A DNA stretch of 64,000 bases from an uncultured bacterium. GTDB taxonomy: Bacteria; Krumholzibacteriota; Krumholzibacteriia; JACNKJ01. Numbering within the stretch: position 1 is the stretch's first letter; every line of letters begins with the position of its first letter. The DNA is taken from the NCBI GenBank assembly GCA_963695095.1, contig CAVOFT010000001.1, positions 1,792,001-1,856,000 on the forward strand. Reading direction: 5' to 3'. The notes below the pieces were generated by a model. The model did no database searches. It had not been told where the DNA came from and saw only the letters and a list, made by a program, of their open reading frames with translations. The translations under genes were made by a program, and so were the position numbers. Of this stretch, positions 22,620 through 38,814 are shown in pieces.

Positions 22620-22648
22620 ATACTAGCACAAGGTCTGCGGGCGTGCAA
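22620..22648 (-). promoter_or_regulatory. sigma70-type promoter of the candidate sRNA
   Basis: Minus strand TTGCAC-N17-TAGTAT with extended TG. Confidence 0.65.
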
Positions 22649-22732
22649 GCGGCGCCACGGCCTTTTGACAGGACTCACGGAAAATCGCCTAACAGATTGC
22701 TAATACATAAGTTACAAGGTGGTAACGGGTCG

Positions 22733-23710
22733 ATGAAGCGGGTCTTCAGTGGCATCCAACCCTCGGGAGAGCCGCACCTGGGCAACTACGCGGGCGCCCT
22801 CCTCAACTGGGTGCGGCTGCAAGCTGAGTACGAGTGCATCTACTGCGTCGTCGACTATCACGCGATCACGCAGAGCTACGAGACAGCGGCGCTGGCGCCG
22901 CGCACCCTCGACATGGCGACGGCGATCCTCGCCGCGGGCGTCGATCCCGAACGGGCGACGCTCTTCGTGCAGTCGGCAGTGCCCGAGCACACCGAGCTGG
23001 CCTGGCTGCTGAACTGCGTGACGCCCCTGGGCGAGCTGGAGCGCATGACGCAGTTCAAGGACAAGGCGGCCCGCGACCGCAAGAACATCAACGTGGGGCT
23101 GCTGGCCTACCCGGTGCTGCAGGCGGCCGACATCGCCCTCTATCGCGGCGAGCTGGTGCCGGTGGGCGAAGACCAGGTGCAGCACCTCGAGCTGGCCCGG
23201 GAGATCGTCCGCCGCTTCAACGCCCGCTTCGGCGAGGTCTTTCCCGAACCGCAGCCCCTGCTCACGACGGCCAAGCGCATCCTGGGCCTGGACGGCCAGG
23301 CCAAGATGAGCAAGAGCCTGGGCAACACGCTCGCCATGCTGGCCGACGCCGAGGAGATCTGGGCGAAGCTGCGGCCGGCGGTGACCGACGTGCGCCGCGT
23401 CCGGCTCAGCGACCCGGGCGAGCCCGAGGACTGCAACATCTTCACGATGCACAAGGCCTTCACGGGCGAGGAGCGGCGCGCGGAACTGGCCGCCGGCTGC
23501 CGGGGCGCGACGATCGGCTGCATCGAGTGCAAGCGGGTGCTGGCGGACAATCTCGATGCCGAGCTGGCGCCCGTGCGCGAGCGCTATCTCAGCCTCAGCG
23601 CGCATCCCGAGCGGGTGCGAGAAGTGCTCGCGGCGGGCGCTGCGCGCTGCCGGGGCATCGCCCGCGAGGTGCTGGGCCAGGCACGGGCGGCCATGGGGCT
23701 CCTGGGCTGA
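22733..23710 (+). CDS. trpS: Tryptophanyl-tRNA synthetase
   Basis: SGIQPSG..HLGNY, YPVLQAADI, VPVGEDQ, KMSKS. Confidence 0.97.
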   Translation: MKRVFSGIQPSGEPHLGNYAGALLNWVRLQAEYECIYCVVDYHAITQSYETAALAPRTLDMATAILAAGVDPERATLFVQSAVPEHTELAWLLNCVTPLGELERMTQFKDKAARDRKNINVGLLAYPVLQAADIALYRGELVPVGEDQVQHLELAREIVRRFNARFGEVFPEPQPLLTTAKRILGLDGQAKMSKSLGNTLAMLADAEEIWAKLRPAVTDVRRVRLSDPGEPEDCNIFTMHKAFTGEERRAELAAGCRGATIGCIECKRVLADNLDAELAPVRERYLSLSAHPERVREVLAAGAARCRGIAREVLGQARAAMGLLG

Positions 23711-23714
23711 GCCG

Positions 23715-24635
23715 CTAGCGCCCCGCCTGATCCCTGAGGAGGGTGACGCGCAGCAGGCCGTCGCGCCCCGGGGGATTGCCCTTGAAGCTGAGTCCCTCGT
23801 ACGCGATCTGGCCGTCGGCGAGCAGCAGGCGTTCCTCCAGGCGATCCGCGAGCCACTGGGCCCGCGCCGCCGCGAGCGGGGCGCTCTCCGCGTAGGACTC
23901 CACTCGGATCGCGCGGTCGGGCGCGCTCAGGATCTCCCGCAGCAGGCGGTCGATGCGCCCCTCCGCCTCGGGCAAGGGGCGGGCTTCCCGGGTGATGAAG
24001 AACTCCGCGGCCGCCGCCTCCAGGCGGAGGTTCTTGCCCTCGCTGTAGGCCAGGGTGGGCAGGACGAAGGTGCTGCCCGCGTACTGGTAGCGGTTGGTGC
24101 CCGAATCCTCGATCGTGAAGAGGAAGGAATAGGGGAAGCCGGGCCGGAGCATCTCGCCGTGATCGCTGCGGCCGTCCCAGGCGAGTTCCAGCGGCGGCAT
24201 CCCGTCGCCGTCCAGGCGCCGGAAGCTCTCGCCGCGATAGTCCGTGATCTCCAGCCGCCAGTGCCTCACGTCCGCGCCGACCGCAAATCCCGTGCGGAAG
24301 GTGGTCACCGGCGCCCGCGTCACCGCGCGGCTGCCGAAGTCGGGGATCACCGGGCAGTCGACGCGCTCGCTGTCGAAGAGATAGGGGTTGAAGCTCTCCA
24401 GGGGCGCGTACTCGAAGAGGAGCTGCTCCACCTCGGTGCTGCCATCGTCGAGTTCCTCCGGCCGGGGGTGGAAGTCCAGCTCGGTCTTTTCCACCTGGAG
24501 GCGGAACTCGTTATCGTCGACGACCTCGAGTTGCTGGATGGCCGCGGGCGGCGGCGCGGACTCAGCCGCTGCGGCGGCCAGGGGCGTCGCCAGCAATCCC
24601 AGGACGGAGACGATCAGCGCGAGGGGCGATTTCAT
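23715..24635 (-). CDS. Secreted protein with FlgD-Ig-like domain and degenerate OmpA-C-like domain
   Basis: Signal peptide; WRLEITD...LAWDGRSDHG; C-terminal F....A.P...IRVESYAE..LAAARA. Confidence 0.7.
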   Translation of the reverse strand: MKSPLALIVSVLGLLATPLAAAAAESAPPPAAIQQLEVVDDNEFRLQVEKTELDFHPRPEELDDGSTEVEQLLFEYAPLESFNPYLFDSERVDCPVIPDFGSRAVTRAPVTTFRTGFAVGADVRHWRLEITDYRGESFRRLDGDGMPPLELAWDGRSDHGEMLRPGFPYSFLFTIEDSGTNRYQYAGSTFVLPTLAYSEGKNLRLEAAAAEFFITREARPLPEAEGRIDRLLREILSAPDRAIRVESYAESAPLAAARAQWLADRLEERLLLADGQIAYEGLSFKGNPPGRDGLLRVTLLRDQAGR

Positions 24636-24652
24636 GTGGGCCTCCACGGGCA

Positions 24653-25993
24653 TCAGCGCAGTCGGAAGACGATGGTGAGCACTCCCCACTGCTCGGCGGA
24701 GTTGCCCGCCGGCAGGGGACTGAAACGCCAGTCGGCCAGGCAGCGCTTGGCCGCCTCGTCGAGCACCTGGTGGGGGCTCGCCTGCTCGACGAACACCTTC
24801 TTGATGCTGCCGTCCGGCAGCACGGTGAAGTAGATGCTGACCGTGCCCAGCCAGCCCTGTTGCTTCGCGGCGGCCGGATACGCGGGCGCCCGCGAGCTCA
24901 GGATGTCGCGGCCCAGGATGGGCCCGCTCAGGGTCATCGAGACGCCCTTGTCGGCCTGCCCGCCGGCGGCGGCCTCGGCGGGCGCAGCCGCCGCGGCGCT
25001 CGTCGGCCGCTCGGGCTCGATACTGCGGGCGATGGCCGGGGCCGGACGCGGCTCGCTCTCGAGGCGCTTCGCCAGCGGGCCGGCGCGAGTGACTGCATCC
25101 GCACCGCCCCGGGAGATGAGGCCCGTGCCGCGGCCGGGCTCGGCGGCCCCGGCCCCGGCCAGCGCGTCGTCGCCCAGGCCGCTCGCGCCGGAGCCGACCT
25201 GCAGCGAGGCGAGGGCGGTCAGGCGCTCCCGACTGCCGTCCTTGGCGACCAGATTGCCGCGCGGCAGCTCGCCGCGATAGGCCTCCTTGCCCTCCGCGAG
25301 CGTGCCACCCACGAGATCGGGGTGGCCGCCGGCCAGTCCGCCCGCGGGCACGGCCAGCGTGAGGGCAGCGCCGGCGAGCGCGGGCCCCTCGCCGCCCTCG
25401 ACCTTGAAGAGGGCCTCATCGCCCAGGCGGGCGCTGCGCCCGACGAGCATCTGCCCCTTGAGGTTCACGTCCTCGGCGCCCATCATCACCCGGCGGGGGT
25501 TGTCGGTGAGGCCGGCGCTGAGCAGCAGCTGATCCTCGCGCAGGCGGGGGACGGCGGGGCCGTCGGTCCGGCGCTGGCGAGACTTGAGGGCCTGCGCCGC
25601 GAAGGGGTTCGTGGCATCGCGCGGCGCCGGCAGCGGCGGCGGCACCGCGCTCAGCGCGGGCGTCGCCGGCTGGGCCTGCGGCTCGCCCTTGGCGAAGAGC
25701 GAGCCCTCGAGCGCCGGCGGCTCCTGCTTGGCGGGTATCGCGTCGGGAGGGGCCAGCTTCTCGGGCGCGAGGCTGACCTGCTTCGCGACGGCTTCGCCGT
25801 AGCGGGCCTCGATGTAGGAGATCTCCGTCAGCTTCCGCGTCTCCGCGAGCTGCCGGGCGCCGAGGCCGCCCAGCAGGAGGAAGAGCAGCAGGTGCAGCCC
25901 CGCCGACAGGACGAAGCCGAGATTGGTGTCGGAAGCCAGGCGACGGCGCCAGGGGCGCGGCGGCCGGCCCTTCTGCGGGGGGTTCAGGCTCAC
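24653..25993 (-). CDS. TonB family energy transducer
   Basis: TM with SAGLH (S-x3-H) motif; long linker; PAYPAAAKQQGWLGTV..F.V..DG...LDEAA....WRF. Confidence 0.88.
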   Translation of the reverse strand: MSLNPPQKGRPPRPWRRRLASDTNLGFVLSAGLHLLLFLLLGGLGARQLAETRKLTEISYIEARYGEAVAKQVSLAPEKLAPPDAIPAKQEPPALEGSLFAKGEPQAQPATPALSAVPPPLPAPRDATNPFAAQALKSRQRRTDGPAVPRLREDQLLLSAGLTDNPRRVMMGAEDVNLKGQMLVGRSARLGDEALFKVEGGEGPALAGAALTLAVPAGGLAGGHPDLVGGTLAEGKEAYRGELPRGNLVAKDGSRERLTALASLQVGSGASGLGDDALAGAGAAEPGRGTGLISRGGADAVTRAGPLAKRLESEPRPAPAIARSIEPERPTSAAAAAPAEAAAGGQADKGVSMTLSGPILGRDILSSRAPAYPAAAKQQGWLGTVSIYFTVLPDGSIKKVFVEQASPHQVLDEAAKRCLADWRFSPLPAGNSAEQWGVLTIVFRLR

Positions 25994-26406
25994 GGCGTGG
26001 CCTCTCCCTTCTTCTGTTCGGTGGCCAGGGCGATGCGCGGCGCCCCGGCGCGCTGCACGGCGGCCAGCAGGAGCTCGATGTCGCCGTAGGCAATGCCCTC
26101 ATCGGCCTTGATCACGGCCATGCTGCTCGGCTGGCGGGCGAAGATGGCGGACAGCCTCGGTTCGAGCTGATCCAGCGTGACCGGCATCTCGTCCACGGCC
26201 AGGCTGCCGTCCCGGGCGAAGACCACCTCCACCTTGTCCTGGTCCTCGGTTTCGGTGGCGGCGGCGTCGGGCAGATCGACATCCGTCTCGCTGCGGTTGA
26301 GGAAGGGGCTGATCACCATCAGGGTCAGGACCACGACCAGGGCGACGTTGATGATCGGCACGACGTCCGCCTTCGGCGCGGGCAGACCGGAGGATTGTCT
26401 GCGCAT
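25990..26406 (-). CDS. ExbD/TolR family protein, non-canonical (Asp to Asn in the TM)
   Basis: ADVVPIINVALVVVLTLMV TM, VDLP, IKAD..I.YG. Confidence 0.88.
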   Translation of the reverse strand: MRRQSSGLPAPKADVVPIINVALVVVLTLMVISPFLNRSETDVDLPDAAATETEDQDKVEVVFARDGSLAVDEMPVTLDQLEPRLSAIFARQPSSMAVIKADEGIAYGDIELLLAAVQRAGAPRIALATEQKKGEATP

Positions 26407-26408
26407 GG

Positions 26409-26837
26409 CTACTGCTCCTTCGCGCGACCCAGCAGGGCGAGGCCTTCGGCCCCGTTCTGCTTGAGGATGTCCATCACCGTGACCACGTTGCCCAGGCGCA
26501 CCTCCGGCTCGGGCACGATGATCACGGTGCGATCGTTGCTGGACGCCAGACGCGTGCGTGTCAGGTCCGCCAGCTCCGTGAGATTCACCAGCCGTCCATC
26601 GACCTGGATGCTCTCGGCCGTGACCAGCACGGTGAGCTTGTCGACGGCGCTGTTCTCCTTGCGGGTGACTTCCGACGTCGTCGCCGCCCGCGTGGCGTTG
26701 ACCTGGATGCCCGACCACAGCAGGGCCGGCATGGTCATCAGAAAGACGACAATCAGCGTGGTCACCACATCCGCGAGGGGAACGATGTTCGCCTCGGCGA
26801 TGCTGTCCAGTCGAGCGCGGCGCGTGCGGGCCATCAC
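26409..26837 (-). CDS. ExbD/TolR family protein, canonical
   Basis: EANIVPLADVVTTLIVVFLM TM; VTVMDILK..G. Confidence 0.88.
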   Translation of the reverse strand: MMARTRRARLDSIAEANIVPLADVVTTLIVVFLMTMPALLWSGIQVNATRAATTSEVTRKENSAVDKLTVLVTAESIQVDGRLVNLTELADLTRTRLASSNDRTVIIVPEPEVRLGNVVTVMDILKQNGAEGLALLGRAKEQ

Positions 26838-27460
26838 TCCACCGGCCGGCTGTTGACGTACTTCCAGAACTCGTTGCGCGCGTCGTCAGCGTCCATGGCC
26901 CGCACGCGGATGCTGCGCGTGAAGGCGTTGTAGCAGATGGTGGCGATGACGGCGACCACGATGCCGGCCGCTGTCGTCAGCAGGGCCTCGGAGACGCCCA
27001 TCGCGATCACCGACGAGCCGCCGCTGCCCGTGACGGCGATGTCGCGGAAGGCGCGGATGATGCCGATCACCGTGCCGAAGAGCCCGAGCAGGGGCGCGAT
27101 GTTCGCCAGCGTGCCCAGCACGACGAGGTGCTTCTCCAGCTTGAGCTGCTCCTTCTCGATCTCCGTGTCCATGATCTGGTCGACCTGCTCACGGCCGGCG
27201 CTGAGATTCTCCACCGCGGCGCTCATGATGCGGCCGAGCGAGCCGCCGCCCTTCTCGCAGTAGCGCGCGAACTCGCCGAGCTGGTTGCGCGAAAGGTGCT
27301 TGCGCATGGCGGCCTTGAATTCGCGGGTCGAGTAGCGCGTGCGCAGAAAGTAGATCCAGCGCTCGAAGGCAAAAGTGACCACGACGATGCTGCAGGCGAT
27401 CAGCACCAGCATCGTCTGGCTCTTGAAGAACATCGCCATCATGTTGTTGTCCGAGAGCAT
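26834..27460 (-). CDS. ExbB/TolQ/MotA family proton channel
   Basis: APLLGLFGTVIGII.AF, GVSEALLTTAAG; AAGGAG RBS. Confidence 0.93.
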   Translation of the reverse strand: MLSDNNMMAMFFKSQTMLVLIACSIVVVTFAFERWIYFLRTRYSTREFKAAMRKHLSRNQLGEFARYCEKGGGSLGRIMSAAVENLSAGREQVDQIMDTEIEKEQLKLEKHLVVLGTLANIAPLLGLFGTVIGIIRAFRDIAVTGSGGSSVIAMGVSEALLTTAAGIVVAVIATICYNAFTRSIRVRAMDADDARNEFWKYVNSRPVE

Positions 27461-27487
27461 TCCCACTCCTTTGCGGATCCGTCCGGG

Positions 27488-30484
27488 CTACTGGGCGCCG
27501 GCCTGTCGCAGTTCCTGGTCCAGGGTTGCCATGCGCTCGCGGGCGAGCGCCGCCCACTCGGCATTGTGAGGATTGTCGGCGATGCGCCGGTAAGCCTGGC
27601 GTGCAGAAGCCAGGTCGCCTGCCTCCTCTTGCAGCGAGGCGATGCGCGCCAGCGCGGCGATTCCGTGATCGTCGGCAAGCGCATTGGGAGCGGCCGCCGC
27701 GGCCTGGTAGGCCGCGAGGGCATCGTCGGCGCGGCCGAGCTTGCTCAGGCACTCGCCGCGCTGGTAGTGGATCTGCACGATGGGAACGCCGGGCTGCCCG
27801 GCGAGCGCCTCGTAGCGGGCGAGGGCCGCCGCCGCGTCGCCGGTCTCGTTCTGGCAGACGTCGGCCATCTGCAACTCGAGTTCCAGCCGGCGCTCATGCT
27901 GGGGGTAGCGCTTCAGGAAGTCCTCGCCGTTGCTGAGGAAGGTGGGCCACTGCTCGAGCTGCCGGTAGCAAAGGCCGGCGTTGAAGAGCCCGAGCGGAGC
28001 AAGTTCGTCCGTTGCGTACTGATCGGCGAGGATCAGGAAGTGCCCCGCGGCCTCGCTGTACTTCTCCTGGGCGTAGAGGATGTGCCCCGCCTTGAGCAGG
28101 GCCGCCGTGGCGAGCGGGCGATCGGGGTAGGTGGCCGTGAAATTCTCGAAGCTGACGCGGGCGCCTTCCAGGTCGCCGAGGGCGAAGCGGCACTCGGCGA
28201 GGTAGAAGAGCGCGTCCGGGGCCACGTCCGCGCTGGGGTAGCGCAGCGTGATGGCCTCCAGGCGCTGGGCCGCTTCCGCGTAGCGCTGGGCCCGGAAGGC
28301 CTCGCTGCCTTGCTCCCAGAGCACCTCGGCCGCGAAGGTGGCATTCGGATTCTGCTCGACGTAGGTCAGCATGTCGCGGCCGCTGCGCAGGAAACAGGCC
28401 TGGATGGCCTGCTGGGCATCGAGCGTGCGCAGGCCATCGGGGTGGGCCTCGACGTAGGCGCTGAAGAGCGCGGCGGCAGCATCGTAGTCGCCCTCGTTGT
28501 AGACGCAATTGGCCTGGTTGAAGAGCGCCTCCTCGGCGGGGGCGCTGTCCGGGAAACGCGCGGCGAGGTCGGTGTAGATCGCCCGCGCCGCGGCGTAGGC
28601 TTGCAGGCCGAACAGGGTGTCGGCGAGCTTGGCGAGCACGGCCGGCATGTCGGCGTAGTCCGGGTGCTCAGCGAGCACGCGCCGCCAGCGCGCCACCGCG
28701 TCTTCGTAGTACTGCAGGGCGTAGAGGCACTCGCCGGACTGGTAGAGGGCCTGGGCGCGCTCCTCGCCGGCGGGCGCGGTGGCGAGGAACTCGTCGAAGA
28801 GGCCAAGCGCCTTGCGGTGCTCCTTGCGATTGAAGTACATGCCCGCGGCCGCCAGGACATTGGCGGGATTCTCGCTGGCCTCGTTGCTGATGACGAGCAG
28901 GTAGCGCTCCTGTTCGAGGGCCGCTTTCTGGTCGTCGCCGAGCTGGCTGTAGCTCGCGGTCATGCCCTGGAGCGCGTAAGGCGCGGCGTCACTGAAGGGA
29001 TAGTCGTTCAGCACGAGCCGATAGAGATCGGCGGCATCCTGGTAGAGCCCAAGCGTGAAGTAGCTCTCCGCGATCAGATAGTAGGTGCGGGCGCGCCAGG
29101 GATTGGGCGTCGGCAGGAGCTTGCGCGCCAGGTGGCGATAGTTGGTGACGATGCGATTGTAGTCATCATCGCCGTAGAAGGACCAGGTGAGCAGGAAGAG
29201 CGCCTTCTCGCCGAGGTCGCTGCCGGTATCCTTGTCCAGGAGCTTGCCCAGTAGGTCGCGAGCGTGCTTGACGTCGTCCAGCTCCAGGTAATCGAGCGAC
29301 TGCATCAGCTGCACGCGCCCCGCCAGGGGATCGCCGGGATAGCGATCCATGAACATGTGCCCGAGGCCGATGCTCTGGTTCCAGTTCTCGTTGCGGGCGT
29401 AGTGGTGCATCATCCGGAAGAGGGCGCTGCTGCTGGTCAGGCCATCGGGGAAGGCCGTCAGGATGGCGCTGAAGGCATGATCGGCCTCGCTCTCGCGCCC
29501 GAGCTGGAAGTAGGCCAGCCCCTGCAGCATGAACACCTTCTCCCGCAGGGGGTCCGCCGGCGGCGCGTCGGCGAGCAGATCGCTCAGGCTGTCCAGGGCG
29601 CGCAGGTAGTCCTCGTCCCGGAACAGGATGGTGGCCAGCTTGAAGCGGGCCGCCAGCGCGTGGCGGCTGTCCGGGTGGGCGGCCAGCACCTCCTCGAAAG
29701 CGCTGCGGGCAAGCTGACGCTGGCCGGAGCGCAGGAAGCTCTCGGCGATGGCGAAGCGCACGTCCTCGGCCAGTGCCGTCGTCGGGTAGCGCACCAGGAG
29801 CTGGCGGTACTGCTGGATGGCCTTGAGGTACTGGCCCTCCTCGGCCAGAGTGCGCGCCGTGTAGTAGCGGGCACGCTCGGACTCCACCTGCTGGAACTGG
29901 GTGCGGGCGGTGGCCAGCTCGCCGCGCTGATAATGGTAGACGCCGTAGGCGAAGCGCAGCTCGGCGCGCTCGCCGTAGCGCGGCCAGGCCGCCACCAGGC
30001 GGTCGGCCGTCGTCTTGAAGTCCTCCCACTCGCCGAGCGCTACCCAGGTTTGCGCCAGGGCGAGCTGGGCGTCGCGCGCGAGGTAGCCGCCGTCGGCGCC
30101 CGCCACGGCCGCGAAGTGCTCGGCGGCGCGAGGGAAGTCGACGAGCGCGAAGGCGCACTGCCCGCGGCGCAGCAGGGCGGCGGCGCGCAGGAGCCCCCGG
30201 GTGCCGCTGGCACCGGGCACGCGGGCGAATTCGGCGTCGGCGGCCTTGAGGTCACCCAGCCGCCAGAGGCACTCGGCCGCCATGTAGCGCGCGCGCCCGC
30301 TGTGCTCGGAGTTCGCGAACTTCTGATCGACCGCGCGATAGGCATCCACGGCCGCCATGCTCGGACCGTCCCGGCGCAGCAGCAGATCGGCAGCATCGAT
30401 GAGCGCGCCGGCCGTCTCCTGTGCGCGGGCCGGGAAGGCCGCGATCGACAGGATGAGCAGGAGCGGCGGGAATCCTTTCCACAT
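27488..30484 (-). CDS. Large periplasmic tetratricopeptide-repeat protein (998 aa)
   Basis: Signal peptide; many TPR units ending in (Y/F)P.S..A..A.(F/Y). Confidence 0.9.
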   Translation of the reverse strand: MWKGFPPLLLILSIAAFPARAQETAGALIDAADLLLRRDGPSMAAVDAYRAVDQKFANSEHSGRARYMAAECLWRLGDLKAADAEFARVPGASGTRGLLRAAALLRRGQCAFALVDFPRAAEHFAAVAGADGGYLARDAQLALAQTWVALGEWEDFKTTADRLVAAWPRYGERAELRFAYGVYHYQRGELATARTQFQQVESERARYYTARTLAEEGQYLKAIQQYRQLLVRYPTTALAEDVRFAIAESFLRSGQRQLARSAFEEVLAAHPDSRHALAARFKLATILFRDEDYLRALDSLSDLLADAPPADPLREKVFMLQGLAYFQLGRESEADHAFSAILTAFPDGLTSSSALFRMMHHYARNENWNQSIGLGHMFMDRYPGDPLAGRVQLMQSLDYLELDDVKHARDLLGKLLDKDTGSDLGEKALFLLTWSFYGDDDYNRIVTNYRHLARKLLPTPNPWRARTYYLIAESYFTLGLYQDAADLYRLVLNDYPFSDAAPYALQGMTASYSQLGDDQKAALEQERYLLVISNEASENPANVLAAAGMYFNRKEHRKALGLFDEFLATAPAGEERAQALYQSGECLYALQYYEDAVARWRRVLAEHPDYADMPAVLAKLADTLFGLQAYAAARAIYTDLAARFPDSAPAEEALFNQANCVYNEGDYDAAAALFSAYVEAHPDGLRTLDAQQAIQACFLRSGRDMLTYVEQNPNATFAAEVLWEQGSEAFRAQRYAEAAQRLEAITLRYPSADVAPDALFYLAECRFALGDLEGARVSFENFTATYPDRPLATAALLKAGHILYAQEKYSEAAGHFLILADQYATDELAPLGLFNAGLCYRQLEQWPTFLSNGEDFLKRYPQHERRLELELQMADVCQNETGDAAAALARYEALAGQPGVPIVQIHYQRGECLSKLGRADDALAAYQAAAAAPNALADDHGIAALARIASLQEEAGDLASARQAYRRIADNPHNAEWAALARERMATLDQELRQAGAQ

Positions 30485-30485
30485 C

Positions 30486-31724
30486 TCAGTTCACCTCGAG
30501 CTGGACGGGGGTCTTCAGCGTCGGATCGTAGTCGCGGATCTCGATCGCAATTTCCTGCGACCAGGGGTCGCCGTACTCGTCGAGCACGACCACGACGACG
30601 CGGTAGTTGCCCGTGGAGACGAGGCGGCCGTGGTCATCGCGGCCATCCCATGCGTAGGTCGCCGGCGGCTCCTTGCTGCCGCGCGCGCTGTGCACCGCGT
30701 TGCCGTCACCGTCGAAGATGGCGAGCTCCCAGCCGCGAGCCTTGCCGCGGAACTGGCTCTTGAGCTCCATCTCCACCTGGTTGCGCTCGCCGCTGGGCGA
30801 GAAGCGCGCGGTGTCGCTGCTGAGGCTGATCCCCGTCGCGACCCCGAAGCGCCAGGTGAAGCTGAGCCGGTGCGAGAGCCCGATCTGGGTATCCGCGACG
30901 GCGTAGTCGAGTTGCCAGGGGCCGTTGCGGTAGCCGCCGCCGGCGCCGTAGCTGCTGCGCTGGGTATCCCAGCCGCTGCGCAGGGCGAAGCCGCCGGGCA
31001 CCCAGAGCTCCCCGCCGGCCTGGAGGCCCAGCGGGGCATCGCCGACGCGGACGACGTCCAGGGTGGCCAGCATGCGGCCGCCCCGCAGGTGCAGCGCGCC
31101 GCCGGCGCGCAGGGTGAGGGGGAAGGTCTCCGCCGTCTTGTAGAGCGTGAGCGTCGGCGGCAGCAGGTTCTGCATCATGAGCCCGAAGCTGAAGAGCCGG
31201 TGCGGCCGGTTGAAGGCCGCCAGATCGAGGCCGGAGGCGCTGGCGCTGAAGCCGGCCAGGCTCTGATTCACGTTGCGGTAACTCGCGGCCAGGCTGAGAG
31301 CGCCGAAGCGGCGGGCGAAGCTGACCTGGATGGAGTTCTGCTGTTCGTCGAAGGTCTCGTCGCTGTCGGCGAGCAGGCTGCTGCGCTCGAAACCGCCCGA
31401 GCTGAGCAGTGCGCCGGCGAGGCCGAGGGTGCCGTAAGCGCCCAGGGGCTGGACGAGGCCCACGTACTCGTAGCGCGTGCCGGTGAGCAGCTCGGCGTGG
31501 AAGAAGAGCAGCTCGGTGCCGCGCACCTGCTCGAGTCCGGCGGGATTGGCGAAGAGGGCGCTGGCGTCGTCGGCCAGACCGGTGGCCGCGCCGCCCATCG
31601 CCAGGCCGCGCGCGCTGGCGGCGAAGCGCAGGAATGAACCGGGCAAGCCGCCCGCCGCCTCCTGGGCGAAGCCCGGACGGGCCGCAAGGAGCAAGAGCGT
31701 GCTGATCAGGATGCGATTTCTCAT
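30486..31724 (-). CDS. PorV/PorQ-like beta-barrel fused to a C-terminal FlgD-Ig domain
   Basis: SARGLAMGGA..GLADDASALFANPAGL; LDYA...LSHRLSF.W.F; then FSPSG...WDGRDDHGRLVSTGNY. Confidence 0.85.
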   Translation of the reverse strand: MRNRILISTLLLLAARPGFAQEAAGGLPGSFLRFAASARGLAMGGAATGLADDASALFANPAGLEQVRGTELLFFHAELLTGTRYEYVGLVQPLGAYGTLGLAGALLSSGGFERSSLLADSDETFDEQQNSIQVSFARRFGALSLAASYRNVNQSLAGFSASASGLDLAAFNRPHRLFSFGLMMQNLLPPTLTLYKTAETFPLTLRAGGALHLRGGRMLATLDVVRVGDAPLGLQAGGELWVPGGFALRSGWDTQRSSYGAGGGYRNGPWQLDYAVADTQIGLSHRLSFTWRFGVATGISLSSDTARFSPSGERNQVEMELKSQFRGKARGWELAIFDGDGNAVHSARGSKEPPATYAWDGRDDHGRLVSTGNYRVVVVVLDEYGDPWSQEIAIEIRDYDPTLKTPVQLEVN

Positions 31725-31741
31725 GATGCTTACCTCGCCGG

Positions 31742-34700
31742 CTACTTGATCACCGCGATTTTGCGCTGCAGCAGTTGGCCGCCCGTGCGAACGGTGCACA
31801 GGTAGCCGCCATTGCCGACCACCTCACCCCGGCCGTTCCTGCCGTCCCAGGGCACCTGGTAGGTCTGGCCGGCGCCGGTCGCCAGCTCGTGGGTCCAGAC
31901 CAGATTGCCGAAATGGTCGTGGATGCGCAGAACGGCGGTGCCGTCGGCGCGGGCGATGAAGAGGATGACGGTTTCCTCGCGGCCGGCCTGGAAGGGGTTG
32001 GGCCGATTGCTCAGCGGCCGCTCCGGCGCGAGCGCCGTGCCGAACACGAGCGTCACGTGCTGCACCGCCTCCCGATTGCCGTGGATGTCCGTGGCGTAGA
32101 AGCTGAGCGTATGTTCCCCGTACTCGCTGACGCCGAGATCGGCGAAGCGAAGCAAATCGGTGTAGACGCGCGCGGGCTGCGCCTCGCCCCCGAGATCGAC
32201 GTCCCAGTAGGTCTGGTCGACGCCGATCTCGCTGGAGCTGCTCAGGCGCAGCTCCGTCTCGGGGAGCAGGAGCAGGCCCTGGTCGGTGGCGGCGCTGCTG
32301 CCCAGCACGCTGAGCGTGGTGATCGGCGGTCCGATGACGGCGATTTCCACCACGCGCGTCGGCAGCGCGCGCACGGCCACCTGCACGATGATGTCCGCGC
32401 GGCCGCCCTCGAGCACGCGGACGCTGTTGCCGGCCGTGCCCAGGTTGCCGGTGAGGACGCTGTCGGCCGCGAGCTGGCCGTCACCAGCGATCATCGTGAA
32501 GGCCACGGCCTCGGCGAGGACGCGGTTGCCGAAGAGGTCGCTGACCGTGGCGGTCAAGGTGGCCGCCTGGCCCGGTTCGAGGGACAGCGGGTTCGCGGCA
32601 ATGGTCAGGCTGGCCGGAGGACCGGCGTGCACCTGGATCGGGTCGGAGAAGACCACCAGCCCCTGATCGTCGGTGATCTGCAGGTAGATGGCCTCGGCCG
32701 CGGTATAGGACTCGGTGATCGTGACCAGGCCCTGGGCGGTGGTGCCGCCGCTGAGCGCGAGGTTGCCCGCCCCCGGCTGGCCGGTGTTGTGGTTGACGGC
32801 CGCGATCGTGAAGCTGCGATCGTCGCTGGTCACGCGCTGGCCGGTGGACGTGTCCACCAGCTCGATGGTGACGGGGAAGGTGGCCGGCGGGCCGACCGTG
32901 GCGCTGACCGGCGTCGTCACCCGGTAGGCGACCGACTCCGGCACCATGTGGATGATGCCGCTGGTGCTACTGCGGCCGCGCCCGTCGCTGACGCGAATGA
33001 CGATGTCCTCGACGACCGGGTAGGTCTGACCGACGATGGAGAGCTCGCCGGCGGCGAGCACGCCGGCCGTGACGCCGAGCGCGCCCAGCGCCGGGCCCTG
33101 ATTGGGCGCCAGGGCGGTCAGCGTGACTTCCTCGTTGGCAACCGTGATCAGGGTGCCGTCATTGCGCACCAGGCGCACCGTCATCGGCCAGCTGGCCGGG
33201 GGGCCGGCCTGGGCCTGAGCGGGCACGCTGATCTCGTAGTGGGCCTCGCCGACCGGGATGTCCACGGCGTGCGCGAGTACGACCGGATTCGCCAGGTCCT
33301 CGACGAAGAGGGTGACGTTGCCCTGGTTGTGCAGGATCAGCTCGTAGTCGCCGACGCCGCCGATGAGGGCCGTGCCGTTGTTGGTCGGGTTGCCGGCCGT
33401 CACGCTGCCCTCGGAACTGCTCAGCGTGATCGTGCCCGCGTTGAAGCCGTCGTTGAGGTTCCAGTACTGGTCCGTGGCCCGCACCTGCACCATGAAGGGC
33501 ACCTCGGCCTGCTGCAGGCGCGGCGTGCCCGTCTTGCCGGTGGGGGAGCTGGCGCCCGGCTGCGGCGTTTCGCCGGGGGCGATGAGCTGCAAGCGCTTGT
33601 AGCCGTCGGGGCGCATCACGATGCTGTTGGAGGTGCCCACCACGCCGCGCGCATCGTGAACGCGCAGGTAGATGTGGCCGGCGCCGGTGTAGGTCTGGTT
33701 GAAGTTGGCGACGCCGTCGGCGAGCACGCCGCTGCCGACGCTCCAGGCGCCGACGCCGAGCTGGCCAGTCTGGCCCGAGTAGACGTCCACGCTGAAGATC
33801 GTGTCCTGGCTGGCGACGACGAGGCCCGTGCCGAGGTCGAGCAGGCGCACCGTGACGGGGAAGTCTGCGGGTCCGCCCACCGTGGCCGTGTCGGGCACGG
33901 TCAGCGCGTAGCCGAGGCCGCCGGGCTGCATGGTGAGGATGGGCGAGTAGCCGACGCGCCCGTAGTCGTCCATCACGCGCAGGATGATGGACTCGACCCG
34001 GTCGTACTGCTGGCCGTTGATGACGCGCACGCCCGCGGCGAGCGTCTCGGCGGTGATGGCGAGATTGCCGGCCGCCACGCCGAAGTTGGGGTAGAGGGCC
34101 GCGATCGTGAAGCTCTGATTCGCGTCCGGGGCGGGGTCGCCCGTCACCGGATCGATCATCTCGACGATCATCTGGAAGCCCGGGTAGCCCGTGTGCGGCG
34201 AGAGATCGGGCAGGGTGAGCTGGAACTCGTAGCCGGGATTGACCGGGATCGACACCGTCTGGCCGGGCGGGGCCGGGTTGGCCGCGTCCCAGACGCTGAG
34301 GTCCACCTGGCCCTCGCTGTCCAGATAGATCTGGAACGTGCGGCGGCCGTTGACGAAGGGCGCGCCCATGTCGCTAGGGTTGTCGGCGCCCACCGAGTTG
34401 TCCGTGGCGCTGAAGGTGAGGGCGCCGCCGTTCGTGGCCGCGGCCAGGTTCCAGAACTGGTCCACGGCCCGTACGGTGACCGGGAAGGGGCTGCGACTGC
34501 GCTGGGTATCGGGCACGCCCTCCTTGCCGGTGGCCAGGAAGGCCTCGATGCCCGCGCGCACTTCCTCGCCGGGGGCGAGGAGCTGCAGGCGCTTGTAGCC
34601 ATCGGCGGCCACGCTGAAGATGGCGCTGTTGCCGATGAGGGCGTGGTCGTCCACGACGTGCAGGTAGACGTTCTCGGCGCGGCTGTAGGACTCATTGAAG

Positions 34701-37700
34701 ATCGCGTAGCCGGCCTCGAGGCTGGCCTGCGTGATGGCGGTCATGCCGAGGCCGGGAGCGCCCGTGGCGGCGGCCCAGATGGCGATCGTCAGCTCCCGGT
34801 CGGCGTCGATGCGGGTGCCGGTGTCCACGTCGCGCAGCTCCACCGAGACCGGGAAGCTGGCCGGCGGACCGGCGACGGGATTCGCACCCTGGCCCAGCGC
34901 GACGCGGTACTCCATGCCGTTCGTCAGCATGTGGATCGGCTGGCTGTAGGCCAGGCGCCCGGCGTTGTCGCTGACGCGAATGATGATGTCTTCCACGGTG
35001 CCGTAGGCCTGCGCGGGCAGGTTGCCGACGCCGCCGTTCAGCGTGACCTGGCCCACCCAGAGCACGCCGCTGGCCGGATCGAGGTTGCTCTTGAAGGCGG
35101 TGAGCTGCACGGTGTGGTTCGCGGCGCCCTCGGGATTGCCGAGGGAGTCGACCAGGCTCACCGCCATCGCGAAGGTCTGCGGCGGGCCGACGCGCGCGCT
35201 GTCGGGCGCCTGGATCAGGTACTGCGAACCCTGCTGCAGGTTGATGGTCACCGCCTGGGGCAGGATGTCGAGGTTGTCGAGGGGATTGGCCTCGACGGAG
35301 ACCGACCCGCTAGCGATGAGGAAGATCGGGAAGCTGATGCTGCCGCCGGCCAGATTCTGGCCCTGGTTGGGCGGGTTGATGGCGTCGAGGGCGCCGTCGC
35401 TGCTCGTGAGCCGGACGTGCTCGTCGTTGTCCGGCACGAGGTTCCAGTACTCGTCGACGCTGCGCACGATGACGGGGAACTGCAGGCTCGTCGTCTGCAG
35501 GGCGGGCGTGCCGAGCTTGCCGTCGGACTCGAAGCCGCCGGGGTTGGGCGTCTCGCCCGGTGCCACGATCTGCAGGCGCACGAAGGGGCCGGGCTCGATG
35601 GCGACGACGGAAGTGTCGGTCCGGGCCGGCCAGGTGACATCACTCACCACCAGCGGCTGATCGCCGGCGCTGCGGAAGTAGAGCTGGGCGCTGGCGCTGC
35701 CCGCGGGCGGGAGCACCAGCGGATTGGCGCTGATCATCTGGCTGTAGCCGACACTGCTCAGGACCACGGTCGGCTGCGTCGCCACCTGGTTGAAGTAGCC
35801 GTCGACGGCCAGGATGGCGGCCGTGATCGTCTCGCCGGCCGTGTGCGGGTAGGGCACGCCGGCCTTGCCGATGCCGATCCCCGGCGTGTGCAGCTCGCCG
35901 GGCAGGAGCAGGAGCAGGTCGCTGTAGGCGCCGGGCAGGACGTCGAAGGGATTGCTCTGGCCGGTGCGGGCGTAGGCGGATTCGGTGGCCGTCAGCACCA
36001 CGTCCTGGCCGGCCTTGTAGACGCGCAAGCTGCCGCGCCAGACGCCGTGCTCGCTGCCGGGCCAGGTGCCGCCGTCGGCGAAATCGACGCTGGCCGGTAG
36101 CAGCACGTCGGCGCCGTGGCTGACCGTGAGCAGCGCCGTCCCCTGGTAGGTGGGGATGTGGTTGCCGAACTGGTCGCGGGCGATGATCGTCAGGTCGTTG
36201 AGCGCCTGTCCGGCCACGAAATCGGGGATGGGCGAGAGCGGATCGTTCGCGCTCGGGTTGCTCAGCGCGTTGATGCCGAGCGTGAAATGGTCGACGACGC
36301 CGGCCTGGAGGGGCACGGCCGTGAAAGCACTCTGGCTGCCGTCGAGGTCGCGCGCCTGTACGGTCTGGAAGTTGGGGTCGGCCAGGGTGCGCAGGGTGAC
36401 CGTGTAGTTGCCGGTGGGCGTGGACTGCTGCTGGCCGCTGGCGGGCAAGGTGGCCGCCGCGTCCGAGCTGCTGAACTGGAGGCGCACCGGGAAGGTGGGG
36501 TCGTTGGTCGCGACCGGGTTCCAGAAACCGTCCGTCGCCACGACGCCGACCGCGAAGGGCACGCCGGCGTCCTGGAAGTTGGGCGTGCCCAGCTTGCCGT
36601 CCGCCTCGATGCTGTCGAAGATGCCCGGGGCGAGCGTCTCGCCGGGGGCCACCACGGCCATGCGCGCATAAGCCGCCGGCGATACCTGGATGGCGCTGCT
36701 CGTGCCGCTGACGCCCTGGGAACTGGTGATCGTCAGGCTGCGGCTCCCGCGCGTGCGGAAGATGACGCTGATGGTCGTGGCGTTGGTGACCGTGAAGTTG
36801 TTGTCGGCGTAGGCGGGGAGCTGGAAGTAGCCGTCGCCGCTGCTCGCGCCCACGAAGTGATTGCCGCCCACCATGTTGAAGTAGCGATCCACGGGTCGCA
36901 CGACGACCGGGGTCACGGTGAATCCGGCCGTCGTCGGATTCGGCGTGCCCAGGTTGCCCGTGAAGCCGGGCGTGCTCAGGCCCGGCGCGTAGGTCTGCCC
37001 GGGCAGGGTGACGAGAAAGCTCTCCAGCGGCCCCGGGTCCACCTGGAAGTAGCCGCTGGTCGAGGCGGCGCTGCCGCCGCTGTCGCAGACCAGCGCGCAG
37101 GAGAAGAAGCGTCGCGTGACCTGGATGTCGGTGTCCAGCTCGCCCGCCGTGAAGACGTTCGTGCTGCTGAGCAGGTAGTCCTCGCTCTCCTCGGCGCCGT
37201 AGCGCACGCGCAGGGATACCGCGCCGTTGAAGGGGAAGCGATTCTCATAGAAGTCGCGCGCGGTGATGCGCACGTCGAAGGGCTGGGTGGTCACCTGCAC
37301 GTCCAGGGTGTCCCAGATCGCGTAGTTGAACTCGAAGTGGTCGAGGCTCTGCGGCTGGACCGTCAGGTAGCTGTTGCTGACATCCGTGATGGAGCCGCTG
37401 GCCGTGGCGCTAACGCTGTGCGTAGCGGCGGTGATCAGCCGGAAGACCTGATCGGCGAGCATGTTGTCGCTCATCAGGCCGCCCGGGGGCAGCTGCACCG
37501 CGGCGTGGCCGTCCGAACTGGCGTAGCTGACCGTGAAGGGCAGGCCGGGGTCCGTCTCCCGCACCGGATTCCACCAGGGGTCCACCGCGTAGACCGTGCC
37601 GCTGAAGGGGATGCCGGCGAGCTGCGCCGTGGGGCTGCCGCTCTTGCCGGGCGGCACGCCGGGAGTGAGCGTTTCGCCCGGGAGCACGATCACGATGCCC

Positions 37701-38452
37701 TCCAGCGCGGCCGGCCAGAGCGGGGTCACCGCGGCCGTGCCCTGGGGGTAGGCGCTCTGGCCCGGGTAGATGCGGCCCCCCGTCGCCGTCAAGGTGTTCG
37801 ACTGGGTGAGCTGGTGCGTGCCCAGGAACTGCACGGGCACCACGGCCTGGCCGTGGTCGAAGAGGCTGCCGCTGATGAGCTGGCTGGGACCGGGTCCCAG
37901 GTTGCCCACCGCCGCGCGCAGGGTGACGTCGTCGGCGAAGTTGGCGATGGCGACGCCGTAGGTGTCCACGGCGGTGAGCGTGATGGGGATGTCCTGGCCC
38001 ACCCACTTGTCGCCGCCCGGAACGCCGATGTTGAAGTGGTCGACGAAGGGGTAGCAGTTGATCCACTCGTAGCCCTTGGGCGCGGTGATGTCGTCGGCCG
38101 CGCGGGCCTCGAGCTGGATGCCGCTGCCGGGGGCATTGAAGACGACGTTGTCGAACTGGACCTCGCCGTTGACGATGTAGCGCGCCGGGGGCAGCGTGGC
38201 ATTGTGCGTCGCGTAGAGCTCGAAGAGCAGGGCGTTGACGCTGGTGTCCACCGTGCCGCCGGCGTTCATGGCGCGCACGCGGACGCTGAAGCCCTGTCCG
38301 ATGGTGACCGCCGGGTTGCCGTCGACCATCACGGCATCGACGACGGTGAGTTCCGTGTAGCTCCAGGCAGCGGCGCCGCCCGCGGCCAGGGCCGTCATCA
38401 GGAAGGCCAGGAGCGCGGCCTGCACGGGGCGAGCCGGGATGAACTGCGGCAT
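31742..38452 (-). CDS. Giant secreted Ig-like repeat protein (~2236 aa) with a T9SS/FlgD-like C-terminal domain; putative adhesin
   Basis: Signal peptide; seven PG[EQ]...G.P....G....V...D..[WF]N repeats; six GPP..FP.... repeats; C-terminus NRPNPF...WDGRN..G..V.NGGY...RKIAVIK. Confidence 0.88.
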   Translation of the reverse strand: MPQFIPARPVQAALLAFLMTALAAGGAAAWSYTELTVVDAVMVDGNPAVTIGQGFSVRVRAMNAGGTVDTSVNALLFELYATHNATLPPARYIVNGEVQFDNVVFNAPGSGIQLEARAADDITAPKGYEWINCYPFVDHFNIGVPGGDKWVGQDIPITLTAVDTYGVAIANFADDVTLRAAVGNLGPGPSQLISGSLFDHGQAVVPVQFLGTHQLTQSNTLTATGGRIYPGQSAYPQGTAAVTPLWPAALEGIVIVLPGETLTPGVPPGKSGSPTAQLAGIPFSGTVYAVDPWWNPVRETDPGLPFTVSYASSDGHAAVQLPPGGLMSDNMLADQVFRLITAATHSVSATASGSITDVSNSYLTVQPQSLDHFEFNYAIWDTLDVQVTTQPFDVRITARDFYENRFPFNGAVSLRVRYGAEESEDYLLSSTNVFTAGELDTDIQVTRRFFSCALVCDSGGSAASTSGYFQVDPGPLESFLVTLPGQTYAPGLSTPGFTGNLGTPNPTTAGFTVTPVVVRPVDRYFNMVGGNHFVGASSGDGYFQLPAYADNNFTVTNATTISVIFRTRGSRSLTITSSQGVSGTSSAIQVSPAAYARMAVVAPGETLAPGIFDSIEADGKLGTPNFQDAGVPFAVGVVATDGFWNPVATNDPTFPVRLQFSSSDAAATLPASGQQQSTPTGNYTVTLRTLADPNFQTVQARDLDGSQSAFTAVPLQAGVVDHFTLGINALSNPSANDPLSPIPDFVAGQALNDLTIIARDQFGNHIPTYQGTALLTVSHGADVLLPASVDFADGGTWPGSEHGVWRGSLRVYKAGQDVVLTATESAYARTGQSNPFDVLPGAYSDLLLLLPGELHTPGIGIGKAGVPYPHTAGETITAAILAVDGYFNQVATQPTVVLSSVGYSQMISANPLVLPPAGSASAQLYFRSAGDQPLVVSDVTWPARTDTSVVAIEPGPFVRLQIVAPGETPNPGGFESDGKLGTPALQTTSLQFPVIVRSVDEYWNLVPDNDEHVRLTSSDGALDAINPPNQGQNLAGGSISFPIFLIASGSVSVEANPLDNLDILPQAVTINLQQGSQYLIQAPDSARVGPPQTFAMAVSLVDSLGNPEGAANHTVQLTAFKSNLDPASGVLWVGQVTLNGGVGNLPAQAYGTVEDIIIRVSDNAGRLAYSQPIHMLTNGMEYRVALGQGANPVAGPPASFPVSVELRDVDTGTRIDADRELTIAIWAAATGAPGLGMTAITQASLEAGYAIFNESYSRAENVYLHVVDDHALIGNSAIFSVAADGYKRLQLLAPGEEVRAGIEAFLATGKEGVPDTQRSRSPFPVTVRAVDQFWNLAAATNGGALTFSATDNSVGADNPSDMGAPFVNGRRTFQIYLDSEGQVDLSVWDAANPAPPGQTVSIPVNPGYEFQLTLPDLSPHTGYPGFQMIVEMIDPVTGDPAPDANQSFTIAALYPNFGVAAGNLAITAETLAAGVRVINGQQYDRVESIILRVMDDYGRVGYSPILTMQPGGLGYALTVPDTATVGGPADFPVTVRLLDLGTGLVVASQDTIFSVDVYSGQTGQLGVGAWSVGSGVLADGVANFNQTYTGAGHIYLRVHDARGVVGTSNSIVMRPDGYKRLQLIAPGETPQPGASSPTGKTGTPRLQQAEVPFMVQVRATDQYWNLNDGFNAGTITLSSSEGSVTAGNPTNNGTALIGGVGDYELILHNQGNVTLFVEDLANPVVLAHAVDIPVGEAHYEISVPAQAQAGPPASWPMTVRLVRNDGTLITVANEEVTLTALAPNQGPALGALGVTAGVLAAGELSIVGQTYPVVEDIVIRVSDGRGRSSTSGIIHMVPESVAYRVTTPVSATVGPPATFPVTIELVDTSTGQRVTSDDRSFTIAAVNHNTGQPGAGNLALSGGTTAQGLVTITESYTAAEAIYLQITDDQGLVVFSDPIQVHAGPPASLTIAANPLSLEPGQAATLTATVSDLFGNRVLAEAVAFTMIAGDGQLAADSVLTGNLGTAGNSVRVLEGGRADIIVQVAVRALPTRVVEIAVIGPPITTLSVLGSSAATDQGLLLLPETELRLSSSSEIGVDQTYWDVDLGGEAQPARVYTDLLRFADLGVSEYGEHTLSFYATDIHGNREAVQHVTLVFGTALAPERPLSNRPNPFQAGREETVILFIARADGTAVLRIHDHFGNLVWTHELATGAGQTYQVPWDGRNGRGEVVGNGGYLCTVRTGGQLLQRKIAVIK

Positions 38453-38579
38453 CGAAGGCCTCCACAGGGCGATGCGGTTGGAACCTCGCGCATCCGGGTC
38501 GGCGAGGAGTGACCACCTGCTTCCAGCGCTGCCCGCTGGCGGCGACGAGGCCGCGGAACGGGCGCTCGACCGGCTGGAC

Positions 38580-38595
38580 TGCAACAGGTATGCCA
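38580..38595 (-). promoter_or_regulatory. sigma54 promoter of the giant-protein/Ton operon
   Basis: Minus strand TGGCAT-ACCTG-TTGCA, near consensus, ~130 nt upstream of the start. Confidence 0.75.
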
Positions 38596-38814
38596 TCGGG
38601 GAAGTCGCGTTCTTGCAAGGCCTTGCGCGGGATGATTCGGAGGGATCAGAAGTGCCAGGGTCGGCTGGGGCCCGCTGACGCCGCCCTCGCCGCCGGCGGT
38701 GCCGCTCTCCATTTGCACGATGGCGCCGAATCCTCTGGACCCGCGGCTGCATCCGATCGAGCGTGCGTGGGCGCGGCGGCCGCCCGCGCTGGGCCCTATC
38801 GAGAAGGAAGCCTC

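Follow-up and report, generated by a model that had tools for sequence, protein, structure and literature searches.

An asparagine-bearing ExbD paralogue paired with a canonical ExbD in a Ton-type operon of Krumholzibacteriota

The 64,000-nt stretch analyzed here (contig CAVOFT010000001.1, positions 1,792,001 to 1,856,000; hereafter the window) is part of a 3.64-Mb genome whose relatives are labelled Candidatus Krumholzibacteriota. On its minus strand it carries an operon encoding an ExbB/TolQ-type ring subunit, two tandem ExbD paralogues (ExbD-1 and ExbD-2) and a TonB-family protein. ExbD-1 has the protonatable transmembrane aspartate by which ExbD/TolR proteins are best known, and ExbD-2 has an asparagine in its place. 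The four genes and the codons in question are as follows.

26834-27466, minus strand: ExbB/TolQ-type ring subunit, 210 aa (PF01618, 109 bits)
26409-26837, minus strand: ExbD-1, the Asp-bearing axle subunit, 142 aa from a GTG at 26837 (PF02472, 66.9 bits)
26769-26771, minus strand: GAT codon of ExbD-1 Asp23, the canonical protonatable residue, in a column invariant across a 42-row alignment
25990-26406, minus strand: ExbD-2, the Asn-bearing axle subunit, 138 aa (PF02472, 76.0 bits)
26365-26367, minus strand: GAC codon of ExbD-2 Asp14, six residues before Asn20 (position -6), read from the window letters
26347-26349, minus strand: AAC codon of ExbD-2 Asn20 (gtt on the plus strand), at the position of E. 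coli ExbD D25 and TolR D23
24653-25993, minus strand: TonB-family protein, 446 aa, with a long linker (PF03544 TonB_C, 59.5 bits; TIGR01352, 60.7 bits)

Both ExbD proteins score above the PF02472 (ExbD/TolR) cut-off of 25.4 bits, and the ring subunit expected beside a member of this family is present, a PF01618 protein adjoining ExbD-1 upstream. The ExbB stop overlaps the ExbD-1 start, for which orthologues suggest an alternative at the ATG at 26834; ExbD-2 starts 2 nt past the ExbD-1 stop, and the frames of ExbD-2 and TonB overlap by 4 nt. These tight or overlapping junctions fit co-translated subunits of one complex.

The ExbD-1 translation (...IAEANIVPLADVVTT...) contains the motif ANIVPLADV in the context EANIVPLADV, and that of ExbD-2 (MRRQSSGLPAPKADVVPIINVALVV...) contains ADVVPIINV in the context KADVVPIINV; the two motifs pair with each other in BLASTP. 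In phmmer alignments to solved structures, ExbD-2 N20 falls on D23 of TolR (9ddm_Y) and D25 of ExbD (7ajq_F), and D14 falls on the corresponding N17 and N19, the Asn of N-x-x-P-x-x-D. The transmembrane Asp of the ExbD/TolR family is thus found in ExbD-1 and is absent from ExbD-2, and the BLASTP and structure-based alignments bear out the sequence-only reading, which had called ExbD-1 canonical and placed Asn at the essential Asp position of ExbD-2. In BLASTP the two proteins share only 25% identity across their periplasmic domains. After its Asp, ExbD-1 has a cluster of threonines (window, D-V-V-T-T; most orthologues, D-V-T-T-T) where canonical ExbD and TolR have hydrophobic residues, and this cluster may belong to a modified polar path.

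A scan of one genome per species recovered 43 orthologous loci, all from Krumholzibacteriota. ExbD-2 has Asn in 43/43 of these and the adjacent ExbD-1 has Asp in 43/43, so that in no locus does ExbD-2 keep the canonical Asp; orthologues that kept it would have undone the asymmetry proposed from the window letters. The Asn codon is AAC in 41 loci and AAT in 2, and the Asp codon is GAC in 27 and GAT in 16, synonymous variation that points to selection on the residue at both sites. In a broader set of 79 homologous proteins including the query (word-indexed search, down to 46% identity), Asn is present in 78 and Asp in one, P0023. This protein, from a 1761-base contig and 62% identical to ExbD-2, is alone among the 79 in having the canonical N-x-x-P-x-x-D (INVVPIIDV), and its Asp could be ancestral and retained, or could have arisen by reversion. 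ExbD-2 is far more variable at position -6: the 43 loci have T (26), D (9) or N (8) there, and the 79 homologues have N (31), D (26), T (20) or S (1), with one sequence truncated. The exchange of Asp and Asn within the motif, read from the window as a swap, was therefore not upheld: the D...N mirror image is confined to the nearest relatives.

ExbD-2 was never seen without ExbD-1, and all 43 loci encode two different ExbD/TolR-type genes together with one ring gene. The junction between the two is a 4-nt overlap or a gap of at most 3 nt in 43/43 loci (starts chosen heuristically). Homologues were found for ExbB in 42 loci (the single miss being a contig end), for ExbD-1 and ExbD-2 in 43 each and for TonB in 40, with gene order kept wherever the contigs reach. 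The ExbD-2 frame is intact in 41/43 loci. The exceptions are L054, where it is cut to 100 aa (5962-6264), and L055, where a 568-aa frame runs into TonB (5971-7677); assembly indels, rather than true fusions, are the probable cause in both, and their motifs still show Asn in ExbD-2 and Asp in ExbD-1.

Paired alignments of ExbD-1 and ExbD-2 (42 rows each, L054 and L055 dropped) show that the transmembrane helix is the most conserved part of both proteins and is near-invariant on all faces. The mean frequency of the majority residue is 0.95 in the ExbD-1 helix versus 0.66 after it, and 0.90 in the ExbD-2 helix versus 0.65 after it. Within the same alignments T26 of ExbD-1 and T28 of ExbD-2 are invariant, and T27 of ExbD-1 and S22 of ExbD-2 are each conserved at 90% or above. 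Such constraint on all faces is expected of a helix enclosed in a pore, not of a decaying or lipid-exposed anchor. The ring subunit is canonical, keeping the equivalents of T148, E176 and T181 in an alignment to E. coli ExbB (5sv0_B). Across 201 sampled genomes of the phylum, ExbD-2 orthologues (E <= 1e-20) were present in 76, including 50 of the 125 high-quality ones, with a concentration in four families and none detected in five others.

Unequal pairs recur elsewhere in the genome. It contains 12 ExbD-family genes, arranged as five tandem pairs and two solitary genes. Three of the five pairs are Asp/Asn and two are Asp/Asp, both solitary ExbDs (L001 and L002) have the Asp within a canonical motif, and the Asp-less ExbDs always adjoin an Asp-bearing one. 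The other two Asp/Asn pairs lie in operons in which the Asn subunit comes first.

G000:C1:774958-776560 (L056 6944-8560): ExbB-ExbD(Asn)-ExbD(Asp) operon, with the motifs MLPLMNIF and MTSMMDIF
G000:C1:2143134-2144826 (L057 7114-8826): ExbB-ExbD(Asn)-ExbD(Asp) operon, with the motifs IIPVLNMF and LTSLVDMM

The second of these is followed by two TonB_C-domain proteins, one with a CarboxypepD_reg match, and resembles Agl/Glt-type envelope motors. The proteins of both operons are very distant from ExbD-2 (about 20 bits versus 64 bits on the TolR model) and fall apart from it on a weak tree, and the Asn of ExbD-2 probably reflects a loss independent of theirs. Among the best 150 representatives and the query, the D25 column contains D in 119, N in 18, S in 5, G in 5, A in 1, C in 1 and a gap in 2. 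A 155-row FastTree tree, weak on account of the short alignment, places at least 13 state changes in this column, at least 5 of them on well-supported branches, and gives support to a 15-row group that includes ExbD-2 and has 14 Asp-less members.

In a sister lineage known from metagenome contigs, one contig (L058 1707-3136) has the order TPR, ExbB, ExbD-1, ExbD-2 and another (L059 11-1578) has ExbD-2 followed by TonB. The sister-lineage ExbD-2 has Ser at the Asp position (DLMPLTSMAL), and its ExbD-1 keeps the Asp with Ser replacing the motif Pro (NVLSLTDS), as judged from a four-sequence alignment and three short loci, two of which were examined. With Asn in ExbD-2 and Ser in the sister lineage, the conserved feature is therefore a small, polar, non-titratable residue.

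The genes that flank the motor genes are the following.

31742-38752, minus strand: 2336-aa protein with a C-terminal FlgD_ig-like domain (PF13860 at residues 2267-2322), probably the first gene of the cluster
30486-31799, minus strand: 437-aa outer-membrane-barrel-like protein (PF03687, UPF0164, 26.6 bits; PF13860, FlgD_ig, 30.2 bits)
27488-30484, minus strand: 998-aa TPR protein directly upstream of ExbB (TPR_6, TPR_16 and YfiO matches)
23715-24689, minus strand: 324-aa conserved protein, the last gene of the operon, with no Pfam match and of no known family
22643-23710, plus strand: tRNA-synthetase gene (PF00579), marking the operon boundary

A homologue of the 324-aa protein follows TonB in 39 of the 43 loci, the four misses being at contig ends. 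The TPR protein has a homologue in 37 loci and the UPF0164-like protein in 27, many contigs stopping before its place. The sub-lineage of L043, L044, L051 and L052 has a different upstream region in this cluster, in that roughly 3.4 to 4.7 kb upstream of ExbB give no TPR or UPF0164-like match, or a short fragment match only. Both the 2336-aa and the 437-aa proteins (30486-38752) end in FlgD_ig-like domains, and UPF0164 is an outer-membrane family; these features suggest a motor that works for a surface or outer-membrane process, not for TonB-dependent import of the classical kind. No match to the TonB-dependent transporter family was found among the scanned operon proteins (the rest of the genome was not searched for one), and Pfam gave no TolB or Pal match among the flanking operon proteins.

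We propose, at a probability of roughly 0.55, that the locus encodes an obligate ExbB5-ExbD1-ExbD2 motor in which one Asp alone can be protonated. ExbB, ExbD-1, ExbD-2 and TonB would form one Ton-type proton-driven motor whose two-helix central axle pairs ExbD-1 (Asp23) with ExbD-2 (Asn20) as a fixed heterodimer within the ExbB pentamer. Proton uptake and release would be carried out by ExbD-1 only, giving one proton site per motor instead of two, and the Asn of ExbD-2 would act as a permanently neutral stand-in for a protonated Asp, still able to hydrogen-bond to the conserved ExbB threonines. A step with the Asp helix facing the ExbB channel would be powered, and one with the Asn helix facing it unpowered or differently driven. 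The two unlike periplasmic domains could offer an asymmetric docking surface for a single TonB, and the motor would probably act on the surface and outer-membrane proteins encoded in its own operon, not on a classical TonB-dependent importer. We infer the 5:1:1 assembly, the activity on one Asp and the process driven from these sequence patterns. Of the two possibilities raised from the window letters, a heterodimeric stator with one canonical site would fit the asymmetry conserved in all 43 loci, and a shifted site would not fit the variation at position -6. A two-chain complex prediction for ExbD-1 with ExbD-2 (42-row alignments, no controls) scored 0.24 against a mark of 0.32 and speaks neither for nor against binding.

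ExbB5-ExbD2, TolQ5-TolR2 and MotA5-MotB2 have two Asp-bearing helices in non-equivalent seats within the pentamer (PMC12965293). For a tandem pair in Myxococcus xanthus, deletion of exbD1 or exbD2 is reported to give the same phenotype as deletion of exbB1 (PMC6434023), so that tandem ExbDs can be non-redundant. Several points count against a working mixed axle. In E. coli, ExbD D25N is reported to be inactive and dominant negative (bioRxiv 10.1101/2022.09.26.509584), and a conserved natural Asn partner is therefore unexpected. This suggests that a canonical motor does not work with a mixed Asp/Asn dimer, and activity here would accordingly need compensating changes. Moreover, P0085, a 42%-identical representative, has Asp, as does P0023, and Asn is therefore not absolutely required in the wider clade.

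The main rival explanation, which we consider unlikely though serious, is that ExbD-2 does not share a pore with ExbD-1 and instead forms its own non-conducting ExbB5-ExbD2(2) complexes or lies outside the pore. ExbD-1 homodimers would then do the proton work, and ExbD-2 would be a scaffold, regulator, brake or adaptor linking TonB, peptidoglycan and the outer-membrane proteins of the operon. The dominant-negative effect of D25N in E. coli would agree with an Asn subunit that is a natural inhibitor or is kept apart, and the low identity of the periplasmic domains would allow distinct roles. However, the near-invariance of every face of the ExbD-2 helix fits a pore-enclosed helix better than a lipid-facing one, one-to-one tight gene coupling in 43/43 loci would be odd for an inhibitor, and the Asp-less ExbDs of this genome always sit beside an Asp-bearing one.

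It is less probable still that both helices join in ion passage with Asn20 taking part in a different coupling chemistry, involving another ion or a water wire with S22 and T28 of ExbD-2 and the Thr cluster of ExbD-1. The conserved hydroxyl residues flanking the site (T26 and T27 of ExbD-1, S22 and T28 of ExbD-2) would suit such a path, as would the retention of a small polar side chain where Ser replaces Asn in the sister lineage, but neither Asn nor Ser is titratable at physiological pH, and we know of no precedent for coupling chemistry based on Asn.

We give very little credence to a moved ion site, in which Asp14 of ExbD-2, six residues upstream, would take over the proton-carrying role. 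D14 and N20 of the window do mirror the canonical N-x-x-P-x-x-D, and among the best 150 50%-identity representatives an acidic residue at -6 occurs in 15/27 Asp-less versus 5/118 Asp-bearing proteins (Fisher p 1.8e-9). The association was not significant in six phylogenetically independent contrasts on supported branches (median p 0.5), and two further ExbDs of the genome, L003 and L004 (IDMTPMVDV), combine an acidic -6 with a normal Asp. By alignment to E. coli ExbD and its topology, position -6 precedes the Pro that starts the helix and lies at the cytoplasmic edge, outside the membrane core. The variability of -6 in the orthologues beside an invariant Asn20 effectively rules the shifted site out, and the Asp at -6 is accordingly not a relocated ion site.

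Sequencing error or decay of ExbD-2 as a degenerating duplicate can be set aside, for although a single G-to-A change would turn GAC into AAC, Asn is conserved in 43/43 loci with both of its codons and in 78/79 homologues, and the frames are mostly intact and the helix strongly conserved. A base error near 26347-26349, which would have refuted the reading of the window, likewise found no support in contigs X1, X3 and X4, from three public runs of three studies, which span the codon with no differing letter; at low depth these are weak on their own, and the conservation is the stronger ground for ruling out both an error and a pseudogene. Shares in the public runs searched were at most 0.10, and none of the runs contains the organism itself.

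By family the components are ExbB, ExbD and TonB proteins, and the system is a variant of the Ton-type motor in which ExbD-2 lacks the best-known functional feature of its family. A literature search, with most subscription journals outside its reach, found no published description of an Asp-less ExbD paralogue, and passages of PMC12965293, PMC11658791, PMC6434023, PMC3551730 and PMC12215075 do not mention one. Models of the Ton, Tol and flagellar stators rest on two identical Asp helices that bind the proton in turn, and a strictly conserved natural Asp/Asn pair is a ready-made test of the need for both sites. We tentatively suggest that a 5:2-type motor could run on a single protonatable site with the Asn (or Ser) helix as an obligatory neutral partner. 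If so, the architecture would not require the cycle of two alternating Asp residues that is assumed for ExbBD, TolQR and MotAB, and Asp/non-Asp axle pairs, having arisen several times, would be a distinct and widespread mechanical class, which perhaps gives up speed in return for closer coupling or a fixed, asymmetric hold on a single TonB. Being small and encoded together with its own ExbB, the pair should suit co-expression and cryo-EM. An active complex would constrain the rotary mechanism (protons per turn, and which step is powered), and an inactive one would reveal a built-in regulator.

One of the closest known systems is the ExbB5-ExbD2 Ton motor of E. coli, Pseudomonas savastanoi and Serratia marcescens (6tyi, 7ajq, 6ye4), with which the locus shares the families PF01618, PF02472 and TonB_C in one operon, the equivalents of ExbB T148, E176 and T181, and an ExbD-1 with N-x-x-P-x-x-D and its Asp. 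It differs in having two different ExbD genes where the known system has one, in the ExbD-2 Asn at the position where D25N inactivates E. coli ExbD, and in an operon with a TPR protein, a UPF0164-like protein and a giant protein, and with no recognized TonB-dependent transporter. A TonB_C protein is encoded in the operon, as expected of a Ton system, whereas scores on the NCBIfam ExbD and ExbB equivalog models (TIGR02803, TIGR02804 and TIGR02797) are far below the cut-offs (ExbD-2 on TIGR02803, 47.7 versus 152.95; ExbB on TIGR02797, 75.5 versus 206.2).

In M. xanthus the Ton-Oar system likewise has one ExbB followed by two adjacent ExbD paralogues, and TonB (PMC6434023), and tandem paralogues are also reported for the Xanthomonas tonB-exbB-exbD1-exbD2 cluster. 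The likeness concerns the tandem arrangement, and these pairs may be Asp/Asp or Asp/Asn.

TolQ5-TolR2 of the Tol-Pal system (9ddm, 8odt, 9kpz) provides the best solved-chain matches, at 65.8 bits for ExbB and 30.7 bits for ExbD-2, and both systems have a long periplasm-spanning partner protein. The TolR homodimer has D23 in both helices, whereas here only ExbD-1 has the Asp, and the genome also has the separate solitary canonical ExbD/TolR genes L001 and L002. Scores on the Tol equivalog models fall below the cut-offs, at 115.3 versus 221 for TolQ and at 64.4 (ExbD-2) and 46.9 (ExbD-1) versus 127.3 for TolR.

The AglR-AglQ-AglS gliding motor combines one ring subunit with two different TolR/ExbD-type subunits. 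In the two ExbB-ExbD(Asn)-ExbD(Asp) operons of this genome the Asn subunit is encoded first, and in the present operon it is encoded second. The GldLM/PorLM motor of type IX secretion is also of the 5:2 type, has two central helices without the Asp and drives an outer-membrane or surface process. The operon described here resembles its setting in having FlgD_ig-type C-terminal domains and a barrel-like UPF0164 protein. It bears no sequence relation to GldL or GldM, and in contrast to that motor one of its helices keeps the canonical Asp and TonB is present.

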